Source: Amphiscolops sp. MND2022 (lineage: Eukaryota). Taken from it: 64,000 nt of DNA. Positions within the stretch are counted from its first letter, which is position 1, and the number at the start of each line of letters is the position of its first letter. A program made the translations under genes and the position numbers. The stretch covers positions 14,324,001 to 14,388,000 of the forward strand of contig OZ076409.1 of the NCBI GenBank assembly GCA_964187785.1. Direction: 5' to 3'. Positions 6,253 through 63,331 of the stretch are shown one piece after another. The notes under the pieces were generated by a model. That model was given only the letters and a program-made list of their open reading frames with translations. It was not told where the DNA came from and searched no databases.

Positions 6253-6357
6253 TTCATTTGTAGTTGGTTTGGTTATTTCTTTCATTTTAAACTTCAAAAG
6301 ATTGGTAATTAGCTGATCAATTAAACAATTAGGGACGAATTGTCGCCTTTTCAAAAT

Positions 6358-19605: not shown

Positions 19606-19765
19606 CGGTGTATTCGTAGGCCACTCAGCCTGTGTCGGTGTATTCGTAGGCCACTCAGCCTGTATCGGTGTATTCGTAGGCCACTCAGCCTGTATCGGGG
19701 TCAGTGTATTCGTAGGCCACTGCGCCTGGTTTGGGGTCAGTGTATTCGTAGGCCACTGCGCCTGT
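19606..19765 (+). repeat. 30-35 bp tandem repeats, core GTGTATTCGTAGGCCACT x5
   Basis: Directly visible; 3 copies in unit 2 (24986-25085). Confidence 0.95.
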
Positions 19766-22379: not shown

Positions 22380-22859
22380 TGCTATTGTGTACTAACTTGA
22401 TATCACACCCGGTTGATCTAATGTAACCTTGCTGGTTAATAAAAATTTACATAAACATCATAAAATAGTTGAAAAGGTCAAAAATCCTACATTCCCTCCA
22501 CTTGGACTACTACTCTCCTGAGTAGTTGGTTTTTTCAGATTTTATTCTTTTACTAGGGGTGTTTGGAAAGGTTAACTCGCTGTCCAGTCAGGATGTAATG
22601 TAATTTTGCTTTATTAACAACATTTATTAATTTTATAAACCAGTGGTTAGAATACAATAACTATAAAATCACTTCACACTTTAATAATAATACCCTTGGT
22701 TAAATACAATATGCCTTCACATTAAACAAAATGTAAAAAGTTTATCAATTCTTTTCCGATTTTTATCGGGCCTTCATTACCAGTTTAAATTGAGAGGCGG
22801 AAGTTCCAGTTTCGGGCTTTCTGGACTGCGGGGATTTTTCCTATGTAGTATTTTTCTTT

Positions 22860-24444: not shown

Positions 24445-27400
24445 TGGAATTACGGTAGCTTTAACTATCGGTTGAGAATAACCTCACTACCTCTCAATTA
24501 AAACCGTAGGTACCATGCACGAGACAAGGACTGGCTGAGTATCTACATAAATCTATTAACTTCAACTGCAAAGAAGAATCCGTGAAATCGAAGACGGTGG
24601 GAGTAAGTGTGACAAGGAAATCACGTTCCTTTTACAAATTTGCTATCTTGCCATCTTTCGGGGCAGTCTCGCTACTCTTGAGCTGTTTTAGAGGAGTCTT
24701 TTCACTAATGAAAAGGAGCGGTTTGAAAGTCAATTAATATACATCAAATAGATAGGGCGATTTATGGACACAAACACAATTTCACATCCCCGAATAATAG
24801 AATGGATAATTTGATGACATCGATAATAGCGGAGAAAAATACGGATTACAGTAGGAGGCATGGAATAGGTTCCAGCAAGGTTAGTTGTAGTATCCTTGAG
24901 GATGGGGTGTGATATCGAAGATATCGAAAAGATCATCTCGCCGCAAAATCTCTATCCGTCTTGGAGGGAAACGTTAACTAACTACCGGTGTATTCGTAGG
25001 CCCCTCAGCCTGTATCGGGGTCAGTGTATTCGTAGGCCACTGCGCCTGGTTTGGGGTCAGTGTATTCGTAGGCCACTGCGCCTGTTACGATAGGATCACT
25101 ACCGGACGCAAAGCAGCAAACCGTTCTTTAGATTTCAACTCACTTTGTGTGTCGCAAAAATGGCGCACATTTAGTTCAAACTTACTTTTTCGGCAGTTTA
25201 GTCACTTAAGTATTCGTATTTCGTCATCATTCTTTTTTTGGTGCCTGACTAAGTGTTGAGTAAGACAGTTGTCCCTACTTCGGTACTAAAAATTCTTCAG
25301 AGGAATACATTTTCTCATCATGAGTCAGTCCTGGTTCCACCTCCTTGTCAATCATGACTAGTTGTTTCACTTCGTTTTCAATGGAATTTAAGGGGAGGTG
25401 TCACTGACTCAATTTTTCCCACTTTTGTAAGCACGACTTGAACTTCGGCTTACTGATTGACATTTGCAGTTTTTGTCAGGTCTTTTTTTCCCACACGGCC
25501 CCTGACAACTCTCTCCAGCTAGATATGGCTGAATGAAATAATTTTCCACAATTTACAATGACATAAAATGCGAGTTTAATTCCTGTCCTGAAAAGTCGAT
25601 TTTTGGGTTACGCATTTAAAGGACAAAAACTAGATGTTCCGATCACCGGGGGCCAAAACTAAGCACTTCATCTAAAAAAACATTTGATGGGCTACAAAAA
25701 TGCTCGTGTTCATTATCTTTTTATTTCAACTCCTTCACGGTGAAAAACGCCCTTGAAGTACAGTAGCGAAAAATCACTTTTTGACATTTACTGAATTCTC
25801 AACTTTGGAGGACTCGTACTCATCCAGTTCAAAAGATACAGGGTGGGCACCTATACACAACGCTAGCCCAAGCCAAGCGAAGTATTTTGCAGTTTGGACC
25901 AAGATGAGGTCTCTAGCTTGCTTCAACAATTTTTGGTAACGGTTTTTCTAAAAGAGGTCCTTTTTCGAATTTTGGTGACATGACTTTCAACTTTGACGGT
26001 CAATATCTCAACACCACGGCATGTTTCGGAAAAACTCTTCTGGTAAACGCTGTGCGCGAGACTCTTGAGGGTCTACCCTGAAAGTTGCAGCTCGATATCT
26101 TCCAAAACGTGCGGAGGGGGGAGTTCGCATTTTGGTAGGTCGACATACCTATGAGCAGATAATAATCACAACAAATTCTTGGAAGTTTTTCGCTAGCGCG
26201 CCGCAGCACTGTATTTATTATTCTATTCACTCCTCCGCTTCAATTCACAAGTACGCTGTGAAGGGGGCGTCTTTCGTGCGCTTCTACGTTGAGTACTAAG
26301 CGATAACACGCGAAAAACGGCTTTTTAGGCCATTTTGGGGCCATTTTTAACGTTTGCTGGGTCAAACCTCAAAAACTACTGAATATTAGTTATTTTCCTT
26401 TTAACACAAGTTAGGACATTCAGTTATCTTTAATTTAAGCCATATCCGAACGTTTTCTGACAAGTTTAGCGATCACACGAAGTTTTTAAAGGAAACTCAT
26501 TTTTAAAAATTCGTCAAAATTTTATACAAACCTTTTTTCAACGCTTCCCCCTAATATGTTCTCGACGTCGCACGGGGCTCATATTCTCAATTCAAGCTCT
26601 CCTGTGGACGGGCTGAAAACCGTTTGTTGATATCTTTCTCCATCTTCGAGAAATCGCGTTTTGATTTTTAATTTACATTAAGAGTGGGATAATTCCAAAG
26701 TGTGTGGCGGCCGTTTTCTTATTAGCTGTGCGTTCAGCCACTCACAGCGCGTTCTCATTTTCATTCCTTTCGCTTTCTGACACGCTTAGTTGAGTTGCGT
26801 TCTATGCTTATACCGCTAATTGTGAAGTTTCACACCTAGCCACTCTCATTTACACGTGTTAACATAGCAATTCCGCTAACTTTCTTTTCTTCGTAAAAAT
26901 GGCTTCTTCATCTAATTCCCGTTCATTAAAGTACTCTACTGATTACTCAACACGTAGTCAAGGCGTGGTTGAACGTATGAGTGATATTTATATGGGTTTC
27001 ATTAACAATGATAATGTTTCTGATTTCCCTTTAGTTCATGAACTTTGGCCGCATTTCCCTACTATTTCCCCTGCTAATTTTAACTCAATTTCTCCCTCGA
27101 AGCCATGTAATCTTGCTGGAGTAAATACAGAGCCTAGAGGCATTTTAAAGCAAATTTCTGACCAGCCTAATTTAACTTGGACCGATTTAGAAAACTTTTC
27201 TGACCCTCTTTAATTAATATTACGAAAGGACCAGAGTATTCTGTAACTCGTGAATTTATTAATTCCATGGAGGGTGAAATGGATTTTGTTAACTGTATTA
27301 CTTCTTTTTCAAAGGGGGCCGCGTGAAAAGGAGGCGATATATTTAGGATTTACCATTCAACGGCCGGGTGACCTAATTTATATTCCCAGTTTCCGGTCTC

Positions 27401-27797
27401 ATGCGGTGTTTATCTCTAGACTCAGGTAGGCCAACAACGTTATCTGGTTGGGATGCTTCGACGATCGTGGATTCTTATATTATTACGCGGACATTAGACG
27501 AATACAACGTGGGGGTATGACGTGGCACCTGGAGAAAAATTCTACGGACACAGGGCAGGGAGGAATTACGCAAATGGGTGTTTTCGCCAGCAGAGGGCCC
27601 TCAAACCTCAAAAGAACAACTTCTCAAACACTGGACGTATTGGGAGGCTTATTGTCCCCATCTACTTAATACCTTGTCTCTTTAATGCTATTGTGTACTA
27701 ACTTGATATCACACCTGGTTGGTCTAATGTAACCTTGCTGATTAAAAAAATTTTACATAAACATCATAAAATAAGTGGGAAGTTCAAAAATCCTACA
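24445..27797. repeat. Unit 2 (partial) of head-to-tail duplication
   Basis: Collinear with 19077-22491; has an extra ~200 bp at ~25956-26160 and lacks ~200 bp of the JmjC core; ends at a HINE-like element. Confidence 0.93.
26899..27685 (+). pseudogene. JmjC pseudogene, copy 2 (HxE segment deleted)
   Basis: Same N-terminus MASSSNSRSLKY; QRPGDLIYIPSFRSHAV retained; deletion junction at ~27310. Confidence 0.78.
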
Positions 27798-46098: not shown

Positions 46099-46257
46099 TA
46101 CCTCAGTCACTTTTTGATTGTTTTGTACCTAACAGGTAAGAATTTTTCGATCAAGTCTTCATCGCAAATTAGCAAACCTAATAATAGTGACAGGTAAATT
46201 AGCTTTTTTGATCAGATCCAATGAAGAGGAAGGAAAACAAACCGGGAACGGCCAATG
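46099..46257 (+). repeat. 159-bp direct repeat, left flank of Gypsy element
   Basis: Identical as read to 63173-63331; separated from the 5' LTR by ATGGGC. Confidence 0.97.
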
Positions 46258-46263
46258 ATGGGC

Positions 46264-46687
46264 TGTAACGGCAAGCTCTGGTACAGCAACATCAACCGAC
46301 ATGTTTAGAAAATTTTGTCAAAAATTCGTTCAAATTTGACGTGGCACTCAAACATGCTCAAGACGAAGTACCTGCCAGAAAAAGTACCCCAAAAAAGCAG
46401 AAATCGCCGCTCGCGACGAACAAGCACCGGAGACGACTACGAAGACGTCCCCAACGCATACAGAACACGGTATTGTGTCAATCTCTAGGAGATATCCAGT
46501 AAAGGAAACCAGTGTTCCAGATGTTCGCCTGAGTATCCCTGCGGTATCCTGTGTGGCAACTAGCGCTAGCGCTGGGAACCTGAGGTCAATTCTCATCAAA
46601 TGACTCTGAACTCTTGATTTCTTGTTGTATTTTTCGATGTGGTAGATTAATATGCTCGAGAGCTGTTGTTTAACATCTGTTTATTCA
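46264..46687 (+). repeat. 5' LTR, truncated (lacks last ~298 bp and PBS)
   Basis: Matches 62443-62874 with about 3 substitutions and one 8-bp indel; similarity stops abruptly after TTTATTCA. Confidence 0.93.
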
Positions 46688-47736
46688 CTCACCAAAGTCG
46701 AGAAAAGCTCTCTGACGTTTCGACTTCAGAAAAGCACATAAAAGCCGAAAAATTCCAAAACTACAGGACTGTCAGTGCCTTATACCTAACGGGCACGACC
46801 AATTGAGGGTTTATCCCAGTGCTACGGATAGTGGGGCAACACGTTAGTCCCATTTTGCCCGCCGTATCACTTCCTGAGGTGATCCTCTTGGTCAAATTGT
46901 GAAAAAAGTAGTCAAAAACAGTGTTTTTTCGTGTTCAACGTACATAGTGAGTCGAAGACTCAAATAAGCGCTCGCGCTTCAATTCGACCATTTTAGTGGC
47001 ATTGTGAGTGCCTGCTGGCATAGACTACCAAGTTTGGTGCCGATCTGTCTGATACTTGTCGAGAAAATAGAAAAAACGTGGAGCCCAAAAAGGGGTCCAA
47101 AAAGGCAGTTTTTTTCTTAATTTTTCCAAGTAACCCGGGCACCTTAGCCGACGGGTGGGGCTACATTGCAACCCACCATCGTAACTTGTGCTAGTTCCTA
47201 GAGAATTTGAACTTGCTAGCTCTTTCCCGTGGACCGCAACCTTGAAAAAGACGTGAAAAACAGTGTATTTCGGTACATAGTGGTACCGCACGTCTGTACC
47301 TAGGTGAAACTGTGTAGAAGGGGTGCAGCTCAAAACTGTGTTCATTTTCGTAAACCTACGTGTACCTAAGATCTGCTGGTCAATTTTGGGCTGGATACGG
47401 CGCTTCCCGTGCACACCCGAGCCTTTGGAGAGTTGTCGTGCGATTTTTGAAAAATCCAAAAGTTCCTTGAAATCCTTCCTGTGGGTGACTGGAGACTTTT
47501 TGCCCCAAACCAAGTTGATTTTCTAGCCCTGTGTGCTTGTGGAAAAACGCTGTGCAAATTTGAACAGCCTACGAGCTCTAGAACGTGTTTCGAAAAATCT
47601 AGAACGTTGAATACCATCAAAATTCTTAAGTGCTCACCGGGACGACCAAGGGATCAGCTTCGAATTGAAGACCCTGGTGCGTTCGGCGACCCAATTTGAG
47701 TCTTCTGAGTAATCGTGAGCGGTATCTCGATCGCTA

Positions 47737-50030
47737 TTGATAAACGCGTTGGCCACTGAACCGATGGCGGTGTCCCATACTGGTTCACAATCATGGGTCG
47801 CGATAGAGGGTTCGCGTTTTTCAGACGACATGTCTGACGAAGTCACTATCGAACAACAGCGAAAGGAGGAATTGGCCGCTATGGTTCCTCCCTCAGAGAA
47901 CTCCAGTGTTTCTGCAAATTCGCGTCGAACTGAGCAGTGGGTCGACGAAACCTGCCGCGATAGAGCTAATGAAGTGGAAGAGGGCTGGCCTAATTCGAAT
48001 ATGACCGATGAACTGGCGGCTGAGGAAGGGTGCTCGCGCGCACCCCCGGCTGGAGAAAGACAACTTGGCTCACAAACTGACATGGAGCAGGACCTCACTT
48101 ATGTGGAAGGCATGAGTTACGCGCGACAGCGGGGACTCGGGACCACTCGAGGACCTACCCGGGTCTGTGCCTACGGGAAGCACAAGAAGGTGCGACCACC
48201 TATACTACAGGTAGGCGAGCCACGTCAAGAGGTATCCCGTGTCAGGAGTATGACAGGCTCATTGGCCTCATTGCAACGGTCTTCAGTATACAAGGCAGCA
48301 CTATTGGATGCCCAAGCCGAAACCCAACGGGCCCTAGCAGGTCTGGCCAGCACTCGTGCTGAATGCAATGAGCAACACCTTGCCATCGTAGAGAACATTA
48401 AAGTGATGCAGACGACGATGCGTGAAGGCCTGCAGGTCAGTGATCAATTGCGCACCGCGCAGAATGTGCAAAATGCTCGAGTGGACACACTGGGTCACCG
48501 GATAGGAGAGATGAATGACACGTTGATGGCTCGCGAGCTGCGCGTGGAAACGCAGATCAACGACTTAAGCAATCAGATGCACACGGTACTCAATGCCATT
48601 GATGTCATGAGGCGTGAGAGGTCACTCCCGCGGCAGCCCAGTGCAAGTGGAGGCGTGCGGAATGGAGGTCCAGTCCGTATCTCGGAGCCGACGTGCCCGA
48701 GCGAGGTAGTGAAATCGGAACTGCCGAGCGCGCTAAAGCCTAGCACTTCCAGGCCGGCAGTGCCTGCGCCCCGGAAAGATGAAGGAGTAGCCGGAAATTT
48801 GGTGATAGCCACGCCTGAAGCAGAGCGCAAGCCTGCACGAGTGCAGATGAGGGGACATCACGACTCAGCAGAATCATCGATGCCTTCTGCAATCCAGAGT
48901 ACCACTCGAGATCAAGGCGTGGACCCGATGTCGACCATCTATCTTGATTCCTCGGTTGAAGTCGACCTATCTAACACCAAAGCAACCCTAGGCTCTCAAA
49001 CCGAGGGAGCAACGTTTGCAACTGCCCCCATTTCGATGTCAGGACCAGATTCCCTATACTGGCACTCCCTGTGCTAGCAGCACTCGTAAAAAGGACGAAA
49101 TCGCCGACCTGTCGATACAAGCCACTCTTGGTAGTCATGACAGGACGCGCGAGGGGGAGGCCAAGGCCGATGAAAGAGAAGCCATATCCCCCGAGCAGCT
49201 GAGATTCACGGCCGCCATATCAAAGGCGATGTCAAAAGAGTTAGCGCCCTTACTCGCCGGCAGAGACTTGGCTCAGGCGAGGCCCAATGTATATCGCGGG
49301 TCCAAAGACGGATCCATTGATGGGTGGATCCTTATTATGCAGAGATACCTGAAGAGAACACAAACCAAGGTCTCAGCCGAGGACCAGGCTTGGAGCATCA
49401 TCGGTCACCTTGAAGGTGAAGCCCGCAACTACATCATTAACAAAGCGGAATCCGAACGTGACACCCCCGAGAAAGTGTTCGAATTGTTATCCAGCCGCTT
49501 TGGCGCTGGAGGAAACCGTATGCAAGTGCGACAAACTTTCCAGAGCCGCATTCAACAAGAGAAAGAAGACTGGATGCAGTACTTAGACGCTCTAGAGGGT
49601 CTTCGGAGTCAAGGATTCCCACAAGAGGCAATCACCACCAAGCGCTATGAAATCCTCCAGCGCTTCATGGAAGGTGTACGAGACCCAGCGCTGAGGCGGG
49701 AGCTGGCCATAGTGTATGCCTCGGAAGTCTTCCTGACCGAGCCACCTACCGTGGAATCCCTCCGCTTCACCACCCGCCAATTGCAGCGCAACCGTCCAAA
49801 ACCTAACCAATTCCCTCAACCCTATGACCCCAGACTAGCAATGAGGTCTCGACCTCATCCCTTCGCGCCACTACCCCCCAACAAAATGGTGTTACCACAA
49901 GGAGTAATGCCTCCCCCACCTGCGAGTAATGCTCCCCCAATCAAGCAGCAGTGCAGCCTGCGGCACGCCTACCCGTTGGCGCGTGCTATAATTGCGGTCA
50001 AGCTGGGCATTTTGCCCGGGACTGTCCCAC
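47737..50030 (+). pseudogene. gag: Gypsy gag (frameshifted near 49030 and 49935)
   Basis: Coiled-coil-like N-terminal region; capsid-like YRGSKDGSIDGW...HLEGEARNY...FQSRIQQEKE...RFMEGVRD; CCHC knuckle CYNCGQAGHFARDC at ~49984-50025. Confidence 0.9.
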
Positions 50031-53000
50031 CCGCGATCAAGCTCGCAAACCAGTGGCAGCTCCTGAACCAGAAGGCGTGAAAGTCACTGCTGAAGACGTA
50101 ACTGATGGCGTGTTGGAGAGCTATCCAGGCATTCATCAGTGTGCGCACTGTGGAGTCTATGACCATGTGGATGTCCCCTGTAGTGAGCATTCTCAAGCTC
50201 CGAGGCCTAATGATGAATTGGCCTACAATCGATGGGCTGAAGTGGAATCCGCTGGTGTGGCCGCCCACACGGTACCCCTGGAAGATGATCGCGTATTAAT
50301 GCTACACCCAGCGGAGCCCCCAGCGTTTCACCCCCCACTGATAGTTACATGTGGGACAAAGCAGATTCAGACGTGCTTGGAGCCTACAACGTTCGATCCA
50401 CAAGGGAGAACGTTGATCTCGATTCATCTTATGCTGGCAGCCGAGCAGGTGCGTAGACCAACGTTAACCTTGGCGAAACTCTGGGTTGAGCTATCTGTCC
50501 TCTATAACCGGATGGAATTGCCCCGCCCAAAACAGTGGCACGTCCCTGGAGAGTCGGAGACCCTGACTACGTACTCGCCAGTACCAGTCTGTGCAACGAT
50601 GGACGGCGTGGCCGTGAAGTTCGAGGCCTGTGTGGTGGTAGATGTATTCCCACCCGGCTTATGCTTGGGACCTCAAGAGCTGAAATGCTATAATATCAAC
50701 CACCAAGAACCCACCGGGGAAGCGCGAATAGATGAGCGTGCGTCGCTCGTTGTCTCCTTTGTGGTGCCTCATGCGGCACCTGTCCCACTGCGAGGCCTGG
50801 TGGACACTGGTTCCGGAGTATCCATACTAACCTTCTCCGCCTTCAACCGAGTAGCTGCACGGACCAGAGCGGTCCTGAAACCCTATCAAATTGATTTGTA
50901 CGCTGCCAATGGGAAGACAATAAAGACTTTCGGGTTGGCTGAGCAGATACGCTTCCAGTTGGGAGGGTATGAACTCGAAACCAATTTCGTCGTGGTAGAT
51001 GACGCAATGGGCGTGGAGGACTTTCTGTTGGGTCGAAACTTCCTCCGTTCCTACCAAGTCTTGGTAGATCTAACCTCCATGAAGATAGTGGTGCGAGCAC
51101 CCGTGAAGCCCGTCTGGCATCATGCACACACCCAGGTAGGTGACGCTTCGTTAACTACCCCCATTACCCTGGACAGTGACCTAGTCCTACAGTCTTTCGA
51201 GCGTACAGTGGCAAAGGCCAAACTTGTCACCAACGCGCTTGAACCATTAATCTTCCAGACCGTTGCGCTTAACGCCTCGTTGTCTGATCCCTCATTGCAA
51301 AATACCATCTTTTTAGAGGACAGCGTGGCCACTGTCAGTGAGACAGGAACACTGTATGTGAGCCTGGTAAACCTCACCAGCAACCAGCAGCGTGTACGAT
51401 GTGGTGCCCACCTAGGCACGGTAGTGCCTGTGTCTCTAGTATACCAGGCTGTGCCCCAAAAGCTGGATGCTACTGTGGAAGCTGACCACAAAACTGAAGC
51501 CGACAACAGTCGAGCAAATTTTGTTTATAAAGTATACAGTGAAATGAATCTATCCACTGCTTCTGAGTTAACTTCTTCATCTGAATTTGAGTTTTTGTCT
51601 TCTACGGATCCAAGTGAAGCGGGGCTTTCGGAGCGCGAGATTCGCAAGCGCACCGATCCCGACCTATTGGCCCCGATCCCTGGGCCCGATTCTCAATTGC
51701 AAGAAGTCAAGAAACTCTGGGGCGCTAGCGCCTGCGAGTCCTTAGACAACATTCTTAACGAGTTTGATAACCTATTCATGAAACGCAAGGCGGATATTGG
51801 CCGCTGTACCATTGCTAAACACACCATAGAGGTAGAGCCTGAGGCTGTACCGCACCGTGTAGGTGCTCGGAGAATGTCCCCCGAAAAGGCTGAACGAGCC
51901 AACAAGGAGGTTCGGAGCTTATTGGCCTTAGGGATGATACAACCTTTACTGTCCCCATGGGCAAGTGGTATCGTAATGGTAAAAAAGAAAAGCGGGGAGT
52001 TACGCTTTTGCTGTGACTTCCGACCGCTGAATGAAGTAACCATTAAGGATGCCTACCCCCTGCCCCGTATCGATGAAAGCCTGGCGCGACTGGGCAATGC
52101 AAAGATCTACACCAGCATAGATCTTGCCTGGGCTTTCTGGCAAATTCCCTTGCGAAAGGCGGACCGCCACAAAACAGCCTTTGTCTGTGAGTTGGGACTC
52201 TTTGAATGGCGAAGAATGCCATTTGGCTTGTGCAATGCATCAGCCACCTTCCAGCGAGCAATAGCGCGAGCGCTGCAAAAAATAGTCAATCGCAAAGGCA
52301 GCATGGTCATGGCATACATCGACGACATAGTTATAGCAACTGAGACTGTGGAAGATCACATGGCGCGTTTGCGCGAGGTTTTTGAATGCCTCCGCGAAGC
52401 TGGCTTCAAGATGCGCGTAGCCAAATGCGACTTCATGAAACCAGAAATCAAATATCTGGGACGCGTGGTCTCAGCAGAAGGTGTCAAACCGGACCCGAAA
52501 GCTGTTGCCAAACTGCGCGATTGGGACATCCCCCGCAACAAAACTGAAATGCAAAGTTTCCTGGGATTCGCTAATTATTATCGTGAATTCATCCCGTGGC
52601 ATGCCAAGCTGGTGGCGCCCCTCCACGCCGTTACGGGACTGAATGCCATATTTGCATGGGGTCCTGACCAACAAAAAGCCTTCAACGAAATCAAGACAGC
52701 ATTAATCGAGGCGACTGCGCTCGCGCAGCCTAATTCCGAAGGAGAGTTTGTGCTGGACACCAATGCCAGCGCCGTTGCCATTTCCGGTATCCTACACCAG
52801 TGGCAAGGAGCTCCAGGAGAGCGACGCCTACGACCGATCATATACGGCAGCAAGAAACTGACCACCACCCAAGCCAAATATGGGGCACCCAAGCTGGAGA
52901 TGTTTGCTGCCTACTACTTCATGCTCAAGTACCACAGCTACCTTTGTCCCCGAAAGTTCACCCTGAGAGTCGACAACCAAGCCCTATCCTGGTTGAAAAC

Positions 53001-54078
53001 CTACTCCACGGACCAAGCATTGATTGGACGTTGGATTATGACACTGGACAGGTATCACTTTCGCGTGGAACACAGACCACGAACGCAACACCGCAATGCT
53101 GATGGCTTGAGCAAACGAACCAACGATTATCGATGCCGAGAACAGCAGCTTGCGCAGCTGCCAGCTACTGGAGAGCGTTGGAACTTCATCTCGGCCGAGG
53201 AATTCGACAACCTCCCCATAGCCACATGGTCCGACCTGCAAGGTCGAATCATTCCAAATCATCCTGACCTACCACCGCATCTGCAGAACTTGGAGCCTAA
53301 GGCTCCTGACCAGGCACTCCGTTTGCTTCGCCGTGTGCAACGAGCGAACAAGCGAAAACGACAGGCGAAGGCGCTAGCCGCGCCTTTACCGCCTCAGCCT
53401 CCACCCGTGCTACAGAAGCACGAGGACTTCTATCCAGACTATCCTGAAGACTGGATAGACGTCACCACTGAGGCGAGCGAGGATTACCTGCTGCCAACAC
53501 ATGCAGTAAATGTCCCCTCGCGCACCATCTATTCTGTGACGGGAACGAGTAACGCCATGCTACAGAACTCTCCTGGTGGCGTGTGCGAGTCGATCATGGC
53601 CCTCAAGGACATCGACACCGAGCTCCATGAACACACACATACCGTGCATGGGATCAAGGACTTGGTTTTAGCCCAAAACCGCGATGTCCATGTGCTAGCG
53701 CTGAAAAAGCTCGTGCAGTATGAATACCTAGATAACGATGTGTTTCCCGAGAACGTGCGTGAGTTCGCACGTAATTACTTCCGCCAGAAAAAGGATCTCT
53801 TGTTCATAAACAAGAATGATGTCCTTTGCGTGCAATACTCCCCCACCCAACGCCCACTGCACGAACGTCCGTGCATGATCATAATGCCTCAACTGTACCA
53901 GCACGAGATTTTGTTCCGCGCGCACGACGCAATGGGACACCGAGGTATCTCAAAAGTGGTAGCTCGAATTCAAGAGCGCCACACTTGGCCCGGCATACGG
54001 CGCAGTGTCGGTCGATACGTCGGCCAAGGCCTCACCTGCCAAAAAATACGTGACAAGCCTGGTGACGTACGATTCTAA
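49951..54078 (+). CDS. pol: Gypsy pol part 1: knuckle, pseudo-protease, protease, dUTPase-like beta domain, RT, RNase H, integrase Zn finger; ends at a premature stop
   Basis: LVDTGSG (50803) and LLGRNFL; SPWAS, LRFCCDFRPLN, MPFGLCNA, YIDD (52315); LDTNAS, VDNQAL, NADGLS; AHDAMGH...GLTC. Confidence 0.95.
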   Translation: MQPAARLPVGACYNCGQAGHFARDCPTRDQARKPVAAPEPEGVKVTAEDVTDGVLESYPGIHQCAHCGVYDHVDVPCSEHSQAPRPNDELAYNRWAEVESAGVAAHTVPLEDDRVLMLHPAEPPAFHPPLIVTCGTKQIQTCLEPTTFDPQGRTLISIHLMLAAEQVRRPTLTLAKLWVELSVLYNRMELPRPKQWHVPGESETLTTYSPVPVCATMDGVAVKFEACVVVDVFPPGLCLGPQELKCYNINHQEPTGEARIDERASLVVSFVVPHAAPVPLRGLVDTGSGVSILTFSAFNRVAARTRAVLKPYQIDLYAANGKTIKTFGLAEQIRFQLGGYELETNFVVVDDAMGVEDFLLGRNFLRSYQVLVDLTSMKIVVRAPVKPVWHHAHTQVGDASLTTPITLDSDLVLQSFERTVAKAKLVTNALEPLIFQTVALNASLSDPSLQNTIFLEDSVATVSETGTLYVSLVNLTSNQQRVRCGAHLGTVVPVSLVYQAVPQKLDATVEADHKTEADNSRANFVYKVYSEMNLSTASELTSSSEFEFLSSTDPSEAGLSEREIRKRTDPDLLAPIPGPDSQLQEVKKLWGASACESLDNILNEFDNLFMKRKADIGRCTIAKHTIEVEPEAVPHRVGARRMSPEKAERANKEVRSLLALGMIQPLLSPWASGIVMVKKKSGELRFCCDFRPLNEVTIKDAYPLPRIDESLARLGNAKIYTSIDLAWAFWQIPLRKADRHKTAFVCELGLFEWRRMPFGLCNASATFQRAIARALQKIVNRKGSMVMAYIDDIVIATETVEDHMARLREVFECLREAGFKMRVAKCDFMKPEIKYLGRVVSAEGVKPDPKAVAKLRDWDIPRNKTEMQSFLGFANYYREFIPWHAKLVAPLHAVTGLNAIFAWGPDQQKAFNEIKTALIEATALAQPNSEGEFVLDTNASAVAISGILHQWQGAPGERRLRPIIYGSKKLTTTQAKYGAPKLEMFAAYYFMLKYHSYLCPRKFTLRVDNQALSWLKTYSTDQALIGRWIMTLDRYHFRVEHRPRTQHRNADGLSKRTNDYRCREQQLAQLPATGERWNFISAEEFDNLPIATWSDLQGRIIPNHPDLPPHLQNLEPKAPDQALRLLRRVQRANKRKRQAKALAAPLPPQPPPVLQKHEDFYPDYPEDWIDVTTEASEDYLLPTHAVNVPSRTIYSVTGTSNAMLQNSPGGVCESIMALKDIDTELHEHTHTVHGIKDLVLAQNRDVHVLALKKLVQYEYLDNDVFPENVREFARNYFRQKKDLLFINKNDVLCVQYSPTQRPLHERPCMIIMPQLYQHEILFRAHDAMGHRGISKVVARIQERHTWPGIRRSVGRYVGQGLTCQKIRDKPGDVRF

Positions 54079-54790
54079 TTGAAAAACATTCAGAGTGGCT
54101 ACTTCAACGAGCTGGCCCAATATGACCACTTAAAAATCTGCTCCTCTGATAACAACAACACTGGCATTTTGGTCATCATCGACCATTTCTCTAAATTTGC
54201 AGAGGCAGTCCCTTGTAGTCATCATGACTATGACGCAGTGACCACCTCACGATTGCTGCTGCAGAAATGGTTTGCCCGCCACAGCACCCCCACTCGCATG
54301 CAAACAGACAATGCCCCCAACCTTACTGCTGAAGTCTCTAATGAGTTTCTAAAGGCAGCTCACGTCACTAAGGTGACCTCCACTGCCGGACATCCACGAA
54401 CTCAAGGCTTGGTGGAACGGCAAAACCGCACCCTCTTAACCTTGTTGCGAGTCTTTTGCTCACGTCGCATGCGCGACTGGGACCAGTGCTTAGATGAAGT
54501 AATCGGTGCCTATAATTCCACCAGGCACGCCACTACAGGCTTCTCGCCCTATATGTTAACAAGGGGTGTTGAGAATGCAATTCCCCTCACCTTTTTATAC
54601 CCTGAATTTGCAGCCAAGTCCTTTGATACGCATGAAGCATACGTGGATCATGTGTTGGCTCGCCAACAAGAAATTCACGACTTGGTCCGGCGCAACACGC
54701 ACCAAGCCCAATTGCGCCAAAAACTGAAATATGATCGTGCTATCCGAGCACGAGTTTACCAGCCGGGAGAGCTTGTCTGGGTTTTTGCCG
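54079..54790 (+). pseudogene. pol: Integrase catalytic core (in frame after TAA at 54076-54078)
   Basis: QYDHL, IIDHFSK, QTDNAP, GLVERQN (DDE triad), AYNST..HATTGFSPY. Confidence 0.93.
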
Positions 54791-54794
54791 CTAT

Positions 54795-57080
54795 GTGCCG
54801 CAAAAAGGCTCTCCCAAACTGATGCGCGCCTGGCGTGGCCCGCACAAAATAGTACAAGTCTTTCAAGAAGGACGTGTCTTTGTATTGGACACAGGCCAAA
54901 AGGTTCATTTTGAGCGCCTGAAACCTCATCATAGTGGGCCCCTTGAGCTCGCCACCGCGCAAGCGGACAGCGGCGAAATAGTGGTACTCATGGACCCTGA
55001 CCCTGAACATTCTGTTGAAGCAGTTGACGACGATAAGTCCCAGCCTTCATTTAAAACTGAACAACTACTTTCAGAAGCATCTGACGTATCCTTGCCTTCG
55101 CGCAAGCAACATTGGATGGATACCCGTCTGCGCACAAAGTTACGTGCTGGAGGCTCCCGCATGCACTACCAGCAATTCGACTACTCAACTTCGGGCACTG
55201 ACGACGAGTTGTCCGAAATCATGCTACCGATACCTCCTGATCCCGTTGATGCTGATCGCAGGGAGCCCGAACCCCAACTCCCTTCAGACCAATCAATATC
55301 ACCTGCCCATCATCTGCCTCAACTATTCTCCGACCATGAGCGCGCGCGCTCTCCGTCACCACGAATATCTTCTCCCGAAAAACAGCCCTCCTTACTGGGA
55401 ACATCGGCCCCACGACTGACAAATCCATCACTGACGAGTTTCCTCAACAACTATCCCATTTGGCCGGCCGCTCCTTCCCTTCCTCTGAAATCCGCCACTG
55501 AGGATGACGACGCTCAGTCCAATGTCCCTACTCTTCCCACAACATTGCCCGGAGCGGGGACCGCTCCTTCTTTCAAAAGGGGGAGGGGGAGACCACCCAA
55601 AACGCGAAAAAGGCTGGTCAGAGCGAAGGCAAGAACGAGGAAGAAAGAAACTACAACAACAATGCCGTCGGAAACAGCAATACCGACCGAGGCTTCCGAG
55701 GTCCCCCGATATCAACTGAGAAGCAGACGGCAGCCACGCTATAAGTGCGGGACCTGTGGGCTGCGAGACTGTGTTTGCTTGCTAGCCGTCAATGAGAACC
55801 GGAGGGTTCCCACTGGAGCCCGGGGAGTCCCTCCAGAGCGGGGAGAAAATCTAGTACATCGCCTTACGGTGAGAGCTGAAAAGACTTATTCCTCCCTGGA
55901 ACGACACGGAGACCATCCCGTGGATACTATCCTGGAGAAGTTATCACTACCTGGAGTAGCGAAGGCCCCATGTCCTCAATTCAAGGAGTGGACTAGCGAC
56001 GGGAAAGGGTTAGAGTTCACCCTCGCAACGGTGATGCCCCCAGTACCCAGCAATATTGCTTTTGGACCCTTCAACTTCGAGCGGGAGCCTGTGCAAATGG
56101 TCCGATGCATCACCGCTGATCTTCTCTGTGACAAATACGGAATTCACGTGGATCCGGGCGGAGTATACAGCCCAGCGCCGCACTGGTGGTTGCTGGTCAT
56201 TGCTCCACGAGTGGAGGCAATAGTGGAACCATTGCACCTGCTGTCCTGCTTGGAAGGTCTGAGGACCCTCACTACCGCGGACTTGATACTTTGCTTCCAC
56301 ATCATAGACTGGTATCGTGGCAAAGTGAAATTCGCGTGGTGGTTGGAGCTGATCATCACTTGTTTCCCCAATTATCCTCGCATTAGATTGCTGGACGAGT
56401 GGACTCATACTTTCGAGATTCCGCTTCCTCCGAAAGCCGTTTTGAGCACCCTAGACACATGGGTTAGGGCGGGCAGTGATAACCGAGCGATGCCACGCTC
56501 GGTATGGCAAGACCTGGCTGCAATCCAGGGGCGTACGCCCCGCGTATGCTTGCCTGTCGACAATGGGCCGGGGAGAGAGATTATCTACCCGGGAATCCTG
56601 CATCCAGCCCCAACAGAGCACCTCTCATATGATGTGACTGATTTTCTTCAAGTAAAAGGTGATATGGTGTTAGCGTGTCCCGCTGACCTAGAGACCAACT
56701 CAGCTGCCCTACGGTACGTGCTACGAGAATGCGGCAAGGAGAACGTATTCTCCTTACGTCCTAAGGTGGGGGACATTCTCACCATTCCTCCCGATATCAA
56801 CCCAAACCCCAATCAGAGTATTCACTTGCTAATAATCAGAGCAAACCAGCGTGCGCCGCTGCTCGCAGACGACTACCTACGTTGTATGACACACTTGATA
56901 CAGCGTTTGATGGAGAAGGGATCCACGAGGGTCCACCTACCTATACTGGATCCAGAGCGACCCGCCCTCTCATTGGTAAACTTATACCATACCCTAACGA
57001 ATTTGCTGGAGGGCACTGGCATTCACGTAGTGCTGCATAACCGCGTGTATGTGTCCATTCTGAACATAGGGCTGGAGTAG
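54795..57080 (+). CDS. Integrase C-terminal extension: GPY/F motif, AT-hook, Cys cluster, two putative macrodomains
   Basis: Adding one T to the run at 54782-54786 joins VWVFCRYVPQKGSPKLMRAWRGPHKIV (GPY/F-like); KRGRGRPPK; CGTCGLRDCVC; two TARG1-like segments. Confidence 0.8.
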   Translation: MPQKGSPKLMRAWRGPHKIVQVFQEGRVFVLDTGQKVHFERLKPHHSGPLELATAQADSGEIVVLMDPDPEHSVEAVDDDKSQPSFKTEQLLSEASDVSLPSRKQHWMDTRLRTKLRAGGSRMHYQQFDYSTSGTDDELSEIMLPIPPDPVDADRREPEPQLPSDQSISPAHHLPQLFSDHERARSPSPRISSPEKQPSLLGTSAPRLTNPSLTSFLNNYPIWPAAPSLPLKSATEDDDAQSNVPTLPTTLPGAGTAPSFKRGRGRPPKTRKRLVRAKARTRKKETTTTMPSETAIPTEASEVPRYQLRSRRQPRYKCGTCGLRDCVCLLAVNENRRVPTGARGVPPERGENLVHRLTVRAEKTYSSLERHGDHPVDTILEKLSLPGVAKAPCPQFKEWTSDGKGLEFTLATVMPPVPSNIAFGPFNFEREPVQMVRCITADLLCDKYGIHVDPGGVYSPAPHWWLLVIAPRVEAIVEPLHLLSCLEGLRTLTTADLILCFHIIDWYRGKVKFAWWLELIITCFPNYPRIRLLDEWTHTFEIPLPPKAVLSTLDTWVRAGSDNRAMPRSVWQDLAAIQGRTPRVCLPVDNGPGREIIYPGILHPAPTEHLSYDVTDFLQVKGDMVLACPADLETNSAALRYVLRECGKENVFSLRPKVGDILTIPPDINPNPNQSIHLLIIRANQRAPLLADDYLRCMTHLIQRLMEKGSTRVHLPILDPERPALSLVNLYHTLTNLLEGTGIHVVLHNRVYVSILNIGLE

Positions 57081-57373
57081 CCCGCCCAAAACGCTTTTTG
57101 TTGCCCCCCCCCCTTTATTTAATTTACCCACCCCGATAATCGTTATACCTGGGAGGAAGTGTTAAACCATCCCATGAAATGATTACATTGTAACGTAGCG
57201 TTAGATAACTTCTATCTTTGTGTTCTAATTAGTTAGTTGAACTACAATTTAAACTTGTTGCGGTTCCCCTATGGAACCATCTTTGTACTATTGCTGCTGA
57301 GTGATGAGCCTTAAGCTCTCCCCACAATGCACTTGGTAAGCCTAACGGTAATCCTTTTTAGACCTATGATATA

Positions 57374-60300
57374 ATGGCTTATTACCCCAACAACACGGTA
57401 CCTATTTCCACGACGGGACCTCACGCCAAGAGGACTCAAGAATTGCCTGCGCGAGCGCAGAGGACTAATCAAGTCCAATACGTAGAAGAGCGATTGAGGA
57501 ACGGCCTCTCACCGTTAGCGGTAGCGGGCGTGGCCGCCCTACTCACCCAACTAGACACAATGCAGACGCTGCCTGGCGTATCCGTGTCTCTGGTGACGGA
57601 AGTAGCCGGTTACCGTCGCACCCTAACCTGCCAAAACAATGCGTGGGATGGCCACGATCTGACGCACCAGTTCCTGGATGAACGTTCTACCACAATGCTC
57701 GGGCCCAGCCAGGGCACGAGATTCGAGCAAGAAGCCTCACTGTGTATGGTGCCTGCCAGCGTAGCAACAATGCCTCCTCCTCAGATGGTCGCACTGCCCC
57801 CACCAGCGCCAAATCCAGTACCAATGACGCCAACTTATTCCGGTTCGCCTGCCTTTGGAACCTCATATCGAGCACCACACATGGTACTGCAAACCACTAC
57901 TAATGCACCAGTCTCTGATCGGGAGCCCTCGGGGTCCCGGTTACCACCCATACCCAACCCAGAGCTGACGGGAAGGAGTACCAGCGAACAGGCCGTAATT
58001 GTGGCCTTGCAAGCAGTGGCGAACTATCCCAACTCCACCGATTTCGTCCGTGCCGTGGAGCAGAGAATCCCTGGATTAGCCACGTATCTGAAAGCTGCTG
58101 CTCAGCCCGCGGGCTGTGACCCTCCTGCTCCCCTAGTCGAAACGGCATCTATGGATATGGAAATTGTCGCTGGACCGAGTAACAGCGCAAGCGCTGCCTC
58201 TGGCACACGAGAAGAAGCGGGGAGAAAGCGGCTAACTGAAGAAACTGTCTCAGTTACCCCAGCTGGCTCGGTAACCGAGAGCCCAACTAGTCGTCCCCCT
58301 CCCGACAAGCGCGCTGATGTACCTCGGCCCCAGCTGAAGAGTGTGGTCATCCCTAGGCCCCCGTACCGGGTAGGTCATCTAGGCCGAAGCGCACCTCAAA
58401 TGTCTTTAGCAGACGCGATCGAACAGTATGGAGATCCCGATGCAGGCTCGGAAGTGAGCTCTGTGCCCTCGGGCACCAATCCAATAGATATGTCCCTGGA
58501 GATACCTGAGACGGTGGAGGAAGCCCATCCTCCAGCCTTTCTCCCTCCATCTGACGACGTATCCGGCTCAGTAGTCACCAATGATAGCAAACGCATTTGG
58601 ATGGCGGCTGAGCATCTTTACCCCAGTCAATGCGCTATCAAGAAAAGGACCCCTCCAACTGAAACGGAGCAAAAGGAGATCAACCGGACCACGATACCGG
58701 CGCAAGTCACGCGTTCGCTCCGCCCCCGTGACGCAGACATGTCGGAGCAGGCTTGGGAACAGCGTGCTCGAGAGCAGCTGCCTATGACAACCAACGATTA
58801 CATGGCGCCCCTGCAACACAATATCACTGAGCAATTCCCCGCACGGTATGTGTTGCGAGAAGGTGAGACATGGGAGGCGAACGCCCGTTACGCTCGCAAC
58901 CTGAGATCTTTGAAACCCCTATTGAAAGCAGCTCTGCAGCGTGCGCGCTACTGCATGGCAGTTGATTCTACTTGCCGAAGTGACCTCCCTATTGACAATT
59001 TAATGCCTGACGTGCTGGTGCTAACTATGCCCCTGTCTCGCTTCGCTGAGGTCGCTGAGATGGTTGGAGCCATATACGATCCAAACTTAAGAGAATCACA
59101 AAAGGAACCACCCCCACAGCGAGTGATCTTTGCCAATCTTCTGGATCACATGGCTTGCGAAGGATTGCTGCATGACCTGGACGCCATAATGTCCAATGTC
59201 CGACGACTTGGAGACATTGCCGCCCTGGTAAACGAGGTGGTCGGTGCAATGGAACGTGCCGCAGGGATCCTTCGGGGTCGTCTGGGAGCGCTCGCGCTCT
59301 TTGTATCCCCACCAGGATTCATGTATTGGCCACGAAGTCTGCAGCAGTTCGTCTACATTCTGCTGGAGGTGTGCAAGGCGCGCAGAGTCGAATTCACCAT
59401 CTGTGCACCGAACTTGCGCGTGGACCGAGAGGACCTGCGCCCAGATACCTTATCGTATCCAGCCTTCTTTGCCGCCGTATCTAGAGCGCTTGTGGCTATA
59501 GAACGCTCGGGAAACGCCCAGCTAACCATTGACGATGCTATCCTCTATGATTATGGAATGCGGATGGGCAGACTGGCCTTTGACCTTGACGGCAACCGCA
59601 TTGCCCGAGAATCTAATGTAACCGAACGAGAGGCTGTTCGCCGGTACAATTGGCTAGTGCGAAGAGATAAAGAAATCCCAGTGCGCGCAGAATTAGCCGA
59701 CCTGACAAAACAAATTGGTGCATGGCCTGCAGCGCGCACCGTCGAGAGAACAATTCCTCAGATCCACTTCGCATTGGGAATCGAGCCCGTGAAGCTGCCT
59801 GTAGGGCTGCGGTGTATCGTAGCAATGGAAGCAACAAACCTGAAAGCAGAAGTCGACGCCGCAGCCACAACTTATGCTTATTGGTACCAGACTAGGTTTG
59901 CCACCAGAACTCTGGCAGAAGTAGCTCGAGAGCTCAATTGTCCATTGGAAGCCTTCTGTACCAGTCTTGGTCTAGGATGGAACCTAGAGGTACTAACTTC
60001 TGAGTTCTCGCTGACCCGTACGCAAACGGACAAGCTGCTAGAAACAATTGGAGAGGCAACCGTCGGAGAAATACTAGCGCTCGCGCTAGCGATGGGCCCA
60101 ACCAAGTTTGTAGCCGGACCACTGGCCTTGTTAGCCGACATGGTAATTGCCTGCGACCTCACCGTGTTCTACAGCTACTTGGTCCTGGCACAAGGACAAC
60201 TACGCAGTCTGACCCGTTGGGGACACTTGATGACTTCCGAGGACCAGCAAGACTATTCCGCCCAACTGGAACGCATGCGTGCGTCAATCCAGCACTGGCT

Positions 60301-61681
60301 ATACTCCACCCTGGTGTTCGCCTCCGGCCTATTCGTGGGCGTAGACCAATCCCAACCACTACATAACTCCGACCAGCAGATCTCACGGGAAACGGCAGGA
60401 TTCCCCATGCCGCAGCAGATTGCAGATCTCACCCTGGCTGAAGTAGAAGATTTTGTGGCAGCAATGGCTCCTGTCTTGGCCCCTATCTTTGGCGCAGTGG
60501 GCGTGTGCCGATACCCAACTAAACCATTGGCAACAGCCGTCCAAGTGCACATGGTCTCCTTTAGTACCTACCTGCGGGGCCGGCCCTCACTGACGTATCC
60601 AAGGGTAATACATGCAGTGCTGAGTGGTGAGGTGCCGCATGGGTACACGACCATAAAATCCGAAAGAGAGTTGGAGGAGAACTTGATGGGCTTGCTGCGC
60701 GCGCGCACCAGGAAAGCATGTCCTCTACCCCGAGAGCATGGACCTGTGAACTGGTATTCCGCACCTCTCAGTTTGGAAGGGGTCCCCTTTAGGTTCCCCT
60801 GGAGTCAAGAGTTCATGAGGAAGGCGATTCGCGCCAGCACTAGTGCTGGTCCACCTGTGGACCCTTTGTACTGCTTCAAATGCATCGCCTTCCCAAACCG
60901 CTATTGGAAGGAGCCGTTAGGTTGGCCCAGGGCAAAACCCGTTGGACGCGCCCCAGAGGTGTTCAACCGCCAAATCCAACACTTGGAGTCAGCCCAGATC
61001 CCAGGATGGATTGAAGGCGCTGCTCAGATCAGGCAGAGGAATCTCCAATCCCGCGTTATCCCATTCCCCAGGAAGTCGGCATGGAAGCCTACGGGAAAGA
61101 TGACCATGTCTGGAGATATGTCCATCGTCCAGCATGATGAGATAAATTCCGTGTTGGGCTCAACAGAACGAGCGAGATGGGAAGAGTACTGTCTGGAGTT
61201 GGAGATTGCACGCTTCCCTAAATGGAAGAGAGCTTGCGAGCTCTGGAGCCAATCTGGATGGATCTCACGCCGTGTAGCACTAGCGGTAGAAGGTAGAGCA
61301 GAGATAGCGAGACAACAGGCGTTCGCGCCTACCATGCTCGCACCAACGATGGCGATGTCTTTGGATCGGCCCATCTCTCAACCGATCACCATTAACCTTC
61401 CAACCCATAACTTGGAGCCAGACCCAGTTGGCCCGTCTTCGTCGCGAACGAGCCCTCAGTCCTCGCAGCAGCAGTCCGGAGAGCACACTGCCGAATTGAC
61501 TCCCAATGCAGCACTAGTGCAGCCTATTGCCGAGTTGTCGCTCCCCGAAAGTCCGTCGGACTCTGAAACAGTTACCACAGAAGTTTCTCCCCGACGTCGA
61601 GCGTCAGTGTCGACTGATAACCCAGAACAGAACCTAGATGATTCCACTGAAGAGCGGACCCGACGCAGTTCAGCTCAATAA
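57374..61681 (+). CDS. 1435-aa extra ORF in env position; putative degenerate SGNH/GDSL-fold domain plus hydrophobic helical region
   Basis: Uninterrupted 4.3-kb ATG-initiated ORF between pol and the PPT; AVDS, MP, NLLD, SPPG and DLRPD blocks are spaced like SGNH blocks; no signal peptide. Confidence 0.9.
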   Translation: MAYYPNNTVPISTTGPHAKRTQELPARAQRTNQVQYVEERLRNGLSPLAVAGVAALLTQLDTMQTLPGVSVSLVTEVAGYRRTLTCQNNAWDGHDLTHQFLDERSTTMLGPSQGTRFEQEASLCMVPASVATMPPPQMVALPPPAPNPVPMTPTYSGSPAFGTSYRAPHMVLQTTTNAPVSDREPSGSRLPPIPNPELTGRSTSEQAVIVALQAVANYPNSTDFVRAVEQRIPGLATYLKAAAQPAGCDPPAPLVETASMDMEIVAGPSNSASAASGTREEAGRKRLTEETVSVTPAGSVTESPTSRPPPDKRADVPRPQLKSVVIPRPPYRVGHLGRSAPQMSLADAIEQYGDPDAGSEVSSVPSGTNPIDMSLEIPETVEEAHPPAFLPPSDDVSGSVVTNDSKRIWMAAEHLYPSQCAIKKRTPPTETEQKEINRTTIPAQVTRSLRPRDADMSEQAWEQRAREQLPMTTNDYMAPLQHNITEQFPARYVLREGETWEANARYARNLRSLKPLLKAALQRARYCMAVDSTCRSDLPIDNLMPDVLVLTMPLSRFAEVAEMVGAIYDPNLRESQKEPPPQRVIFANLLDHMACEGLLHDLDAIMSNVRRLGDIAALVNEVVGAMERAAGILRGRLGALALFVSPPGFMYWPRSLQQFVYILLEVCKARRVEFTICAPNLRVDREDLRPDTLSYPAFFAAVSRALVAIERSGNAQLTIDDAILYDYGMRMGRLAFDLDGNRIARESNVTEREAVRRYNWLVRRDKEIPVRAELADLTKQIGAWPAARTVERTIPQIHFALGIEPVKLPVGLRCIVAMEATNLKAEVDAAATTYAYWYQTRFATRTLAEVARELNCPLEAFCTSLGLGWNLEVLTSEFSLTRTQTDKLLETIGEATVGEILALALAMGPTKFVAGPLALLADMVIACDLTVFYSYLVLAQGQLRSLTRWGHLMTSEDQQDYSAQLERMRASIQHWLYSTLVFASGLFVGVDQSQPLHNSDQQISRETAGFPMPQQIADLTLAEVEDFVAAMAPVLAPIFGAVGVCRYPTKPLATAVQVHMVSFSTYLRGRPSLTYPRVIHAVLSGEVPHGYTTIKSERELEENLMGLLRARTRKACPLPREHGPVNWYSAPLSLEGVPFRFPWSQEFMRKAIRASTSAGPPVDPLYCFKCIAFPNRYWKEPLGWPRAKPVGRAPEVFNRQIQHLESAQIPGWIEGAAQIRQRNLQSRVIPFPRKSAWKPTGKMTMSGDMSIVQHDEINSVLGSTERARWEEYCLELEIARFPKWKRACELWSQSGWISRRVALAVEGRAEIARQQAFAPTMLAPTMAMSLDRPISQPITINLPTHNLEPDPVGPSSSRTSPQSSQQQSGEHTAELTPNAALVQPIAELSLPESPSDSETVTTEVSPRRRASVSTDNPEQNLDDSTEERTRRSSAQ

Positions 61682-62442: not shown

Positions 62443-63172
62443 TGTAACGGCAAGCTCTGGTACAGCAACATCAACCGACATGTTTAGAAAATTTTGTCAA
62501 AAATTCGTTCAAATTTGACGTGGCACTCAAACATGCTCAAGACGAAGTACCTGCCAGAAAAAGTACCCCAAAAAAGCAGAAATCGCCGCTCGCGACGAAC
62601 AAGCACCGGAGACGACTACGAAGACGTCCCCAACGCATACAGAACACGGTATTGTGTCAATCTCTAGGAGATATCCATTACTACAGTAAAGGAAACCAGT
62701 GTTCCAGATGTTCGCCTGAGTATCCCTGTGGTATCATGTGTGGCAACTAGCGCTAGCGCTGGGAACCTGAGGTCAATTCTCATCAAATGACTCTGAACTC
62801 TTGATTTCTTGTTGTATTTTTCGATGTGGTAGATTAATATGCTCGAGAGATGTTGTTTAACATCTGTTTATTCAATTTGGCGATTTTATCAGATTCTCCA
62901 ATATTACGGTTCAACCTTCATCGATTTTCAGCCCAATTTTTAAAGGCTAGTTGAGCAGTGGTCTTGAGTCTTGCAAGATGCCTGTTACTTTTAGCAGTTA
63001 CAGACTAGGACCAGGCCAGAGAGCGTCCTACGAGACGGTTCCCCCACCTTGGGACTGGCTCCTTCGGAGGAAAAATGAGCTAGGGCCGCGGAGATCTAGG
63101 TCCCAGATTATATTCGCTGTTCTAGTTCCTCCACTCTACGTTGCGGTTCAAGCGCCAGCGCTTATCGTTACA
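62443..63172 (+). repeat. 3' LTR, full length (730 bp)
   Basis: TGTAACG...CGTTACA terminal inverted repeat; first 432 bp match the 5' LTR. Confidence 0.93.
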
Positions 63173-63331
63173 TACCTCAGTCACTTTTTGATTGTTTTGT
63201 ACCTAACAGGTAAGAATTTTTCGATCAAGTCTTCATCGCAAATTAGCAAACCTAATAATAGTGACAGGTAAATTAGCTTTTTTGATCAGATCCAATGAAG
63301 AGGAAGGAAAACAAACCGGGAACGGCCAATG
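63173..63331 (+). repeat. 159-bp direct repeat, right flank of Gypsy element
   Basis: Starts at the base immediately after the LTR CA; matches 46099-46257. Confidence 0.97.

Follow-up and report, generated by a model that had tools for sequence, protein, structure and literature searches.

A conserved third open reading frame with a predicted, rewired SGNH fold in the envelope position of a Ty3/gypsy retrotransposon of Amphiscolops sp.

The right third of a 64,000-nucleotide stretch of the genome of Amphiscolops sp. MND2022 (assembly GCA_964187785.1, contig OZ076409.1, forward-strand positions 14,324,001 to 14,388,000; hereafter the window, to whose numbering all unqualified positions refer) is occupied by a Ty3/gypsy long terminal repeat (LTR) retrotransposon, the third open reading frame (ORF3) of which is the subject of this study. 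The G+C content of the element is above that of its flanks, and its LTRs, polypurine tract, gag region and pol domain order (protease, reverse transcriptase [RT], RNase H, integrase) are those of Ty3/gypsy. Reading along the forward strand, it comprises a 5′ LTR remnant (46264–46684); a gag region with a match to PNMA-like capsids (47719–50080); a zinc knuckle and pol with a long conserved C-terminal tail (49930–57080); ORF3 (57374–61681); and a 3′ LTR (62443–63172) with the polypurine tract 5′ of it. Separated from pol by a spacer of 281 nt, ORF3 is open for 1435 codons and lies 3′ of the pol domains and 5′ of the polypurine tract, that is, in the position of env, as an initial annotation made from the sequence had proposed.

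ORF3 lacks the anatomy of an envelope glycoprotein. A hydropathy scan found no signal peptide, the best 9-residue hydropathy within the first 40 residues being 0.24, and neither a furin site with a fusion peptide nor a C-terminal membrane anchor was found in the protein, whose sole R-x-K/R-R (furin-like) motif lies at residue 1428 in its polar C-terminus. In the env of an unrelated LTR family from the same genome, used as a positive control, a signal peptide, an RQPR cleavage site, a fusion-peptide-like stretch and a C-terminal anchor were all apparent. The initial annotation was thus right to deny ORF3 both a signal peptide and the status of an envelope. Whole ORF3 had no match in Pfam, among PDB sequences or in the ESM Atlas, and Pfam searches with the members of two alignments (63 and 54 rows) did not name it either.

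ORF3 is not confined to the window copy. When the 1.07-Gb assembly was searched with the SGNH region of the protein described below, 136 of 3,261 first-look candidates were scored, at 95–100% identity, and 29 of these 136 sibling matches carried frames of 1430–1440 codons. Twenty-seven siblings picked for an open ORF3 were retained for comparison, ten of them together with their upstream part. The ratio of nonsynonymous to synonymous substitution rates (dN/dS) measured against the window copy was 0.08–0.13 for the 12 of the 27 siblings with a dS of at least 0.18, and climbed to 0.67 for the copy nearest to the window ORF3, as expected if recent post-insertion changes dominate that comparison. 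Further families carry ORF3s at approximately 82%, 52%, 42% and 30% identity, bringing the number of ORF3-bearing families in this genome to at least six, with 2,570–3,292 first-look candidates for such families. The pol-then-ORF3 layout was kept in all four distant families checked, the RT of which is 72–73% identical to that of the window element. Between families, dN/dS was 0.09–0.10 at dS 1.5–1.9 (five pairs, two further pairs being saturated) and 0.04–0.065 over the ORF3 core alone. As judged from these comparisons, ORF3 is under purifying selection (dN/dS ~0.09), and the outcomes that would have told against the initial annotation, neutral evolution or absence from siblings, did not occur. 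Its place downstream of pol and a single hydrophobic stretch could suggest that ORF3 is a highly diverged envelope or else a passenger frame evolving neutrally, but this is very improbable: the first possibility is largely refuted by the missing anatomy, so unlike the true env of the same genome, and the second by purifying selection and by the conservation of a frame length of 1400–1550 codons in all families.

The protein probably exists in further organisms, since two homologs, P0338 and P0260, match this genome poorly (best matches of 29% and 44%, respectively). A homolog search with non-host relatives yielded one new row among three. A homolog labelled Bacteroidota and located on an 816-base contig, is likely to be carry-over from a host.

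Although its ORF3 is intact, the window copy is defective. Compared to siblings, it has a deletion that removes the end of the 5′ LTR (its 3′ part) along with the primer-binding site and ~1.6 kb of leader sequence; its gag is frameshifted near position 49060, and its pol carries a stop at 54076–54078 and a frameshift near 54800. An unbroken gag-pol frame was found in none of the ten siblings with an upstream part, so that the survival of an intact ORF3 in any single copy is partly a matter of chance. The LTRs of one sibling are 99.6% identical, indicative of a recent insertion. In siblings, the leader ahead of gag measures approximately 2.6 kb, and a primer-binding-like sequence, TGGCGACCA, lies 14 nt past the end of the 5′ LTR rather than adjoining it (loci L045 and L046 and other siblings). 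The window element is flanked by an identical direct repeat of 159 nt (46099–46257 and 63173–63331), far longer than a target-site duplication, which together with the 5′ LTR deletion suggests that the insertion was rearranged or that the assembly is in error at this place.

The initial annotation had proposed an SGNH-hydrolase-like fold in the middle of ORF3 on the basis of five motifs, all of which are present where it placed them (58949–59479). An AlphaFold2 model of residues 490–800 built from 63 sequences (predicted local distance difference test score [pLDDT] 80; predicted template modelling score 0.78) was searched against 48,161 representative chains. Z was at least 8 for 35 chains, the top rows including the GDSL lipase 3p94 (Z 10.4, root-mean-square deviation [rmsd] 4.1, 178 residues aligned) and the platelet-activating factor (PAF) acetylhydrolase 1bwp (Z 10.4, rmsd 3.6, 175 aligned), and the best 50 matches were essentially all SGNH-type by title. 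Overall, SGNH matches reached Z values of up to 10.7 over 150–185 aligned residues, with rmsd 3–4.6. Foldseek agreed weakly, its best SGNH row having an E-value of 6.1e-3 and none reaching 0.001 or below. Residues 523–711 (58940–59506, forward strand) are thus predicted, from the model, the fold searches and conservation, to form an SGNH alpha/beta sandwich and a candidate pseudo-esterase, a proposal borne out by structure prediction and not by sequence matching. Escherichia coli TesA (residues 1–179) aligned to model residues 34–222, and ungapped counting from each end placed TesA Ser10 at Ser532 and TesA His157 at Arg689, in agreement with the reading of the motifs. A donor of the domain was not found: at 20 of 31 matching loci examined, canonical SGNH ORFs went undetected by the ORF3 profile, as did the intact long interspersed nuclear element (LINE)-type esterases of this genome.

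The blocks of the domain, read against a published SGNH block table (PMC10792757), are VDSTC (I), MPLSRF (II), FANLLDH (III) and a block V ending in LRPD. The nucleophile of block I is retained, Asp531, Ser532 and Thr533 being kept in 33, 30 and 32 of 35 rows, respectively. Three further catalytic positions are replaced. The Gly of block II, in a register set by motif, is Leu, Cys or His in 47/47 rows; this Gly acts through its backbone NH, and its substitution is described as tolerated in some SGNH members (PMC10792757). In place of the oxyanion Asn of the GxND block III stands a hydrophobic residue or Thr (51/52 rows), within an N-x-hydrophobic-D-H motif in which Asn588 (50/52), Asp591 (51/52) and His592 (49/52) are nearly invariant and Asn588 may compensate for the lost Asn. 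The Asp-x-x-His of block V has given way to Arg at position 689 (44/54 rows, with His in one) and keeps its Asp in only 9 of 52; the loss of the catalytic His claimed by the initial annotation is supported by both the TesA alignment and these rows. The PPG motif, Arg682, Arg689-Pro690 and Ser694 are likewise nearly invariant.

It is likely from these replacements that canonical SGNH chemistry is gone in ORF3. The broader statement of the initial annotation, that the domain is catalytically dead, is likely to hold for the canonical mechanism but is not proven beyond it, given the retention of Ser532 and the new, nearly invariant His592 in block III. Since Ser532, Asn588, Asp591, His592 and Arg689 persist across families that are only ~30% identical, the pocket appears to have been repurposed rather than to have decayed, and it is likely to be under selection for a use other than the canonical chemistry. 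The conserved positions, which from TesA we take to line the substrate groove, would form a Ser/Thr/His/Arg pocket whose composition suggests an anionic ligand. One could also envision an active non-canonical hydrolase or acyltransferase in which Ser532 is the nucleophile, His592 does the work of the His missing from block V, and an anionic substrate is held by Arg689. The conservation of Ser532, Asn588, Asp591 and His592 down to ~30% identity would fit such an enzyme, as would the contrast with Oskar, which is truly non-enzymatic and no longer has the Ser that ORF3 keeps (PMC10792757). The three replaced catalytic positions speak against it, however, as do the catalytically described rows consulted in the block table, all of which keep a block V-type His (PMC10792757), and we consider this alternative unlikely.

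Outside the SGNH domain, ORF3 contains two additional conserved domains, neither of them with a fold match. Residues ~26–110 (57449–57703) form an N-terminal domain that aligns across all families at 25–43% identity and has no match among PDB sequences. They are followed by a Pro/Ser/Thr-rich linker at residues ~130–400 (57761–58573) with a basic RKR and Ser-Pro motif near residues 284–310. The Pro/Ser-rich N-region of the initial annotation is therefore real as far as this linker is concerned, but not all of the N-terminal region is low-complexity. Residues ~799–983 (59768–60322) are confidently predicted to be all-helical (pLDDT ~80–98) within a 626-residue model of residues 715–1340 that is otherwise poor (mean pLDDT 52); searched inside this larger model, the helical domain gave no clear fold match in PDB or viral libraries, its best row being TnsD (Z 4.1, rmsd 4.4, 93 aligned). 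Residues ~985–1300 are conserved and modelled with low confidence. They include a hydrophobic, proline-containing stretch at residues 1027–1045 (60452–60508; hydropathy 1.7–2.3) that recurs in 7/7 family representatives and possibly makes a membrane contact or forms a buried helix. All of these features lie on the forward strand. Basic clusters resembling nuclear localization signals (NLS) were also present in 7/7 representatives.

Another possibility is that ORF3 is a counter-defence or chromatin factor that shields the element from silencing or steers its integration, the pseudo-esterase and the helical domain binding protein or DNA. The high copy number of the ORF3 families is in line with this idea, as is the faster divergence of the ORF3 core compared to RT (~30% versus 72–73% identity), and weak DNA-binding leads came from TnsD and from Myb_Rap1 (E 0.064 in 2/54 rows). 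Yet both leads are at noise level and the dN/dS comparisons gave no sign of positive selection, making this a doubtful explanation.

A splice-acceptor-like site consisting of CTAAC, a T-tract and AG (57342–57361, forward strand) is located 12 nt ahead of the ORF3 ATG. Such sites number nine in the 15.7-kb interior of the element (0.57 per kb), this one included. Each of four distant families has a comparable site, placed 105 nt ahead of a shared Met that is in phase with ORF3; the offsets for two of them were corrected by hand. The site is accordingly present in 5/5 families examined, a recurrence that amounts to conservation rather than to independent repeats inasmuch as the five families share ancestry. 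It is thus likely that ORF3 is made from a spliced RNA. An internal acceptor also implies that the genomic RNA contains an intron and must be exported with it, a problem that the CERV protein of the Caenorhabditis elegans element Cer1 solves. CERV, a product of spliced RNA formerly taken for env, is described as a nuclear protein with a dead GTPase-like domain that is required for the export of Cer1 genomic RNA (Sun et al. 2023, PMC10309623); among the literature retrieved, it was the sole experimentally tested precedent for a protein of such anatomy.

We therefore favor, with a probability of roughly 0.35, a reading in which ORF3 is an intracellular accessory protein that uses its SGNH fold to bind a ligand and escorts the element's own unspliced RNA in the manner of CERV. 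On this view ORF3, the third gene that this gypsy-type element and its relatives conserve, would be translated from spliced RNA; the predicted SGNH pocket would bind a ligand instead of hydrolysing esters; and the protein would bind the unspliced RNA and accompany it from the nucleus to assembly, as CERV does for Cer1. As described for CERV (PMC10309623), ORF3 would be an accessory protein of an LTR element with several domains, one of them a putative dead enzyme, with NLS candidates and perhaps a spliced RNA. The two proteins differ in that CERV, which has 517 residues, contains a pseudo-GTPase domain and shares exons with gag, whereas ORF3 has 1435 residues and a predicted pseudo-SGNH domain, and in that RNA export was shown for CERV (PMC10309623) and is only conjectured for ORF3.

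A number of observations weigh against this scenario. No splice donor was found in the element. The ORF3 model matches neither GTPase nor TIR folds, the likeness to CERV being one of anatomy, and short basic clusters of the NLS type are common by chance. The register of the SGNH blocks was set from the end points of alignments and by matching motifs; some of the rows used for conservation are decayed copies, and the rows are not independent of one another; and the retained Ser532 and conserved His592 may leave room for catalysis. Finally, the net charge of the SGNH domain is close to zero (21 Lys and Arg against 23 Asp and Glu residues), which does not favor bulk RNA binding and also argues against liposome binding driven by charge.

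The latter point bears on the possibility, favored by the initial annotation, that ORF3 is a membrane or lipid trafficking adaptor whose dead pocket would accommodate an acyl chain or the head group of a phospholipid and which, in replacement of an envelope, would take particles to membranes or germ cells. The esterase of ZfL2-1, an ORF1 protein of the CR1/L2-type LINEs, offers a model, as it is reported to bind acidic lipids even with its active site mutated (PMC3905857). Also consistent with this possibility are the lipid acetylhydrolases among the nearest folds (PAF acetylhydrolase, TesA), the env position of ORF3 and the recurrent hydrophobic stretch at residues 1027–1045. On the other hand, ZfL2-1 liposome binding is described as driven by surface charge (PMC3905857), the ORF3 domain is neutral and the protein has no fusogen-like feature; moreover, rank among SGNH folds does not tell the ligand. 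We hold this explanation to be somewhat less likely than the RNA-escort reading. ZfL2-1 and ORF3 share a retroelement-borne SGNH fold (Schneider et al. 2013, PMC3905857), and FPGARV of ZfL2-1 lines up with MPLSRF of ORF3 in block II. ZfL2-1, in contrast, is a non-LTR ORF1 product with a full triad, enzymatic activity and a basic membrane-facing surface (PMC3905857), while ORF3 is found in an LTR context with a broken triad and no net charge. The structure of ZfL2-1 (4C1B) did not appear in the best 50 matches displayed for any of three structure searches, a result compatible with a match at lower rank.

Besides CERV (PMC10309623), the closest precedents are the GDSL ORF3s of rotifer LTR elements (PMC5408684); the initial annotation mentioned neither. 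The Vesta LTR retrotransposons of bdelloid rotifers carry, in env position, GDSL/SGNH ORF3s with intact catalytic residues (Rodriguez, Kenefick, Arkhipova 2017, PMC5408684). These resemble the ORF3 of Amphiscolops in combining an SGNH fold with that position and a lack of envelope features, and an auxiliary role was proposed for them; they were found by HHpred and showed no clear departure from neutrality within their genome (PMC5408684). Unlike them, the Amphiscolops domain is a module of a 1.4-kaa multidomain protein and has Arg in place of His; Pfam does not pick it up, and purifying selection on it is strong. GDSL derivatives devoid of catalytic residues are noted in that source only for Athena-L Penelope-like elements (PMC5408684). 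The OSK domain of Oskar (5A4A) is likewise an SGNH fold lacking the catalytic triad, with Ser lost (GDDFM) and Phe at the position of the His (PMC10792757), where ORF3 keeps Ser and has Arg. In the search with the ORF3 model, OSK ranked below active SGNH enzymes, at position 45 among the best 50 (Z 7.6, rmsd 4.0, 156 aligned), and Pfam OSK matched none of the 63 alignment rows. Triad loss in OSK and ORF3 is likely to have been independent. Oskar is laid out as a small N-terminal domain, a linker and then the SGNH domain, an order reminiscent of ORF3. By prediction, ORF3 thus belongs to the SGNH fold superfamily and is at the same time not classifiable as an active SGNH hydrolase, an OSK domain, a LINE esterase or an env. 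It is likely to work as a pseudo-enzyme scaffold of the CERV or Oskar type. No published description of this ORF3 family was found in the literature searched, which included few subscription journals and no supplements, and neither SGNH nor esterase occurs as a term in the main text of a survey, published in 2026, of gypsy elements that carry an env (PMC13524379).

It is also conceivable, if somewhat speculative, that ORF3 represents an undescribed class of giant accessory proteins combining a rewired SGNH pocket (Ser532, His592, Arg682, Arg689), read either as a non-canonical catalyst or as an anionic-ligand binder, with two domains of unknown fold and with macrodomain-like modules in the pol tail. 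The pol tail is kept across five families at 37–41% identity. Two of its segments (56031–56402 and 56610–57077) resemble tandem degenerate macrodomains, a pattern that we take to be of the TARG1 type but that was not confirmed: the lead consists of an ESM Atlas Macro cluster (0.84) and a repeat-to-repeat comparison (P 0.015, probability 3%), and Pfam and PDB searches of the tail returned no match. If such a class exists, it would have enabled a gypsy lineage without an envelope to spread to thousands of copies.

Other SGNH domains were encountered in the genome. The unrelated LTR family that provided the env control (RT 36% identical; L104 at 1438–2406, and L124 and L125, G000:C7 near 61.30 Mb) has, immediately following its integrase, an SGNH domain of the canonical type in which every catalytic motif is present, in addition to a true env-like gene, and LINE-like elements (L112, L113, L116 and L120–L123) have an SGNH ORF1 ahead of the endonuclease ORF. 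Within this genome, two separate LTR lineages are thus seen to bear SGNH folds. Elsewhere in the window, we noted a BEL/Pao gag-pol fragment (405–3256; DUF1759, protease, RT and Peptidase_A17), a perfect inverted repeat of 933 nt (3205–4137 and 5320–6252, spacer 1182 nt) adjoined by a 17-nt tandem array at ~6270–6815, and a multi-kb local duplication (~19077–22403 and 24445–27709) of 89–96% identity, with copies ~5.3–5.5 kb apart.

ORFs located 3′ of pol are routinely called env by position. The one described here appears instead to encode a large, strongly selected pseudo-enzyme that the sequence libraries searched here miss and that is common to several abundant families of a single gigabase genome. 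It adds to a pattern in which retroelements repeatedly capture SGNH folds, and captured enzyme folds can, as in Oskar and CERV, persist as binding modules. With intact SGNH domains in LINE-like and env-bearing LTR elements of the same host, active and rewired versions may be compared side by side, and the conserved pocket of ORF3 would offer a small, expressible domain with which to find its ligand.

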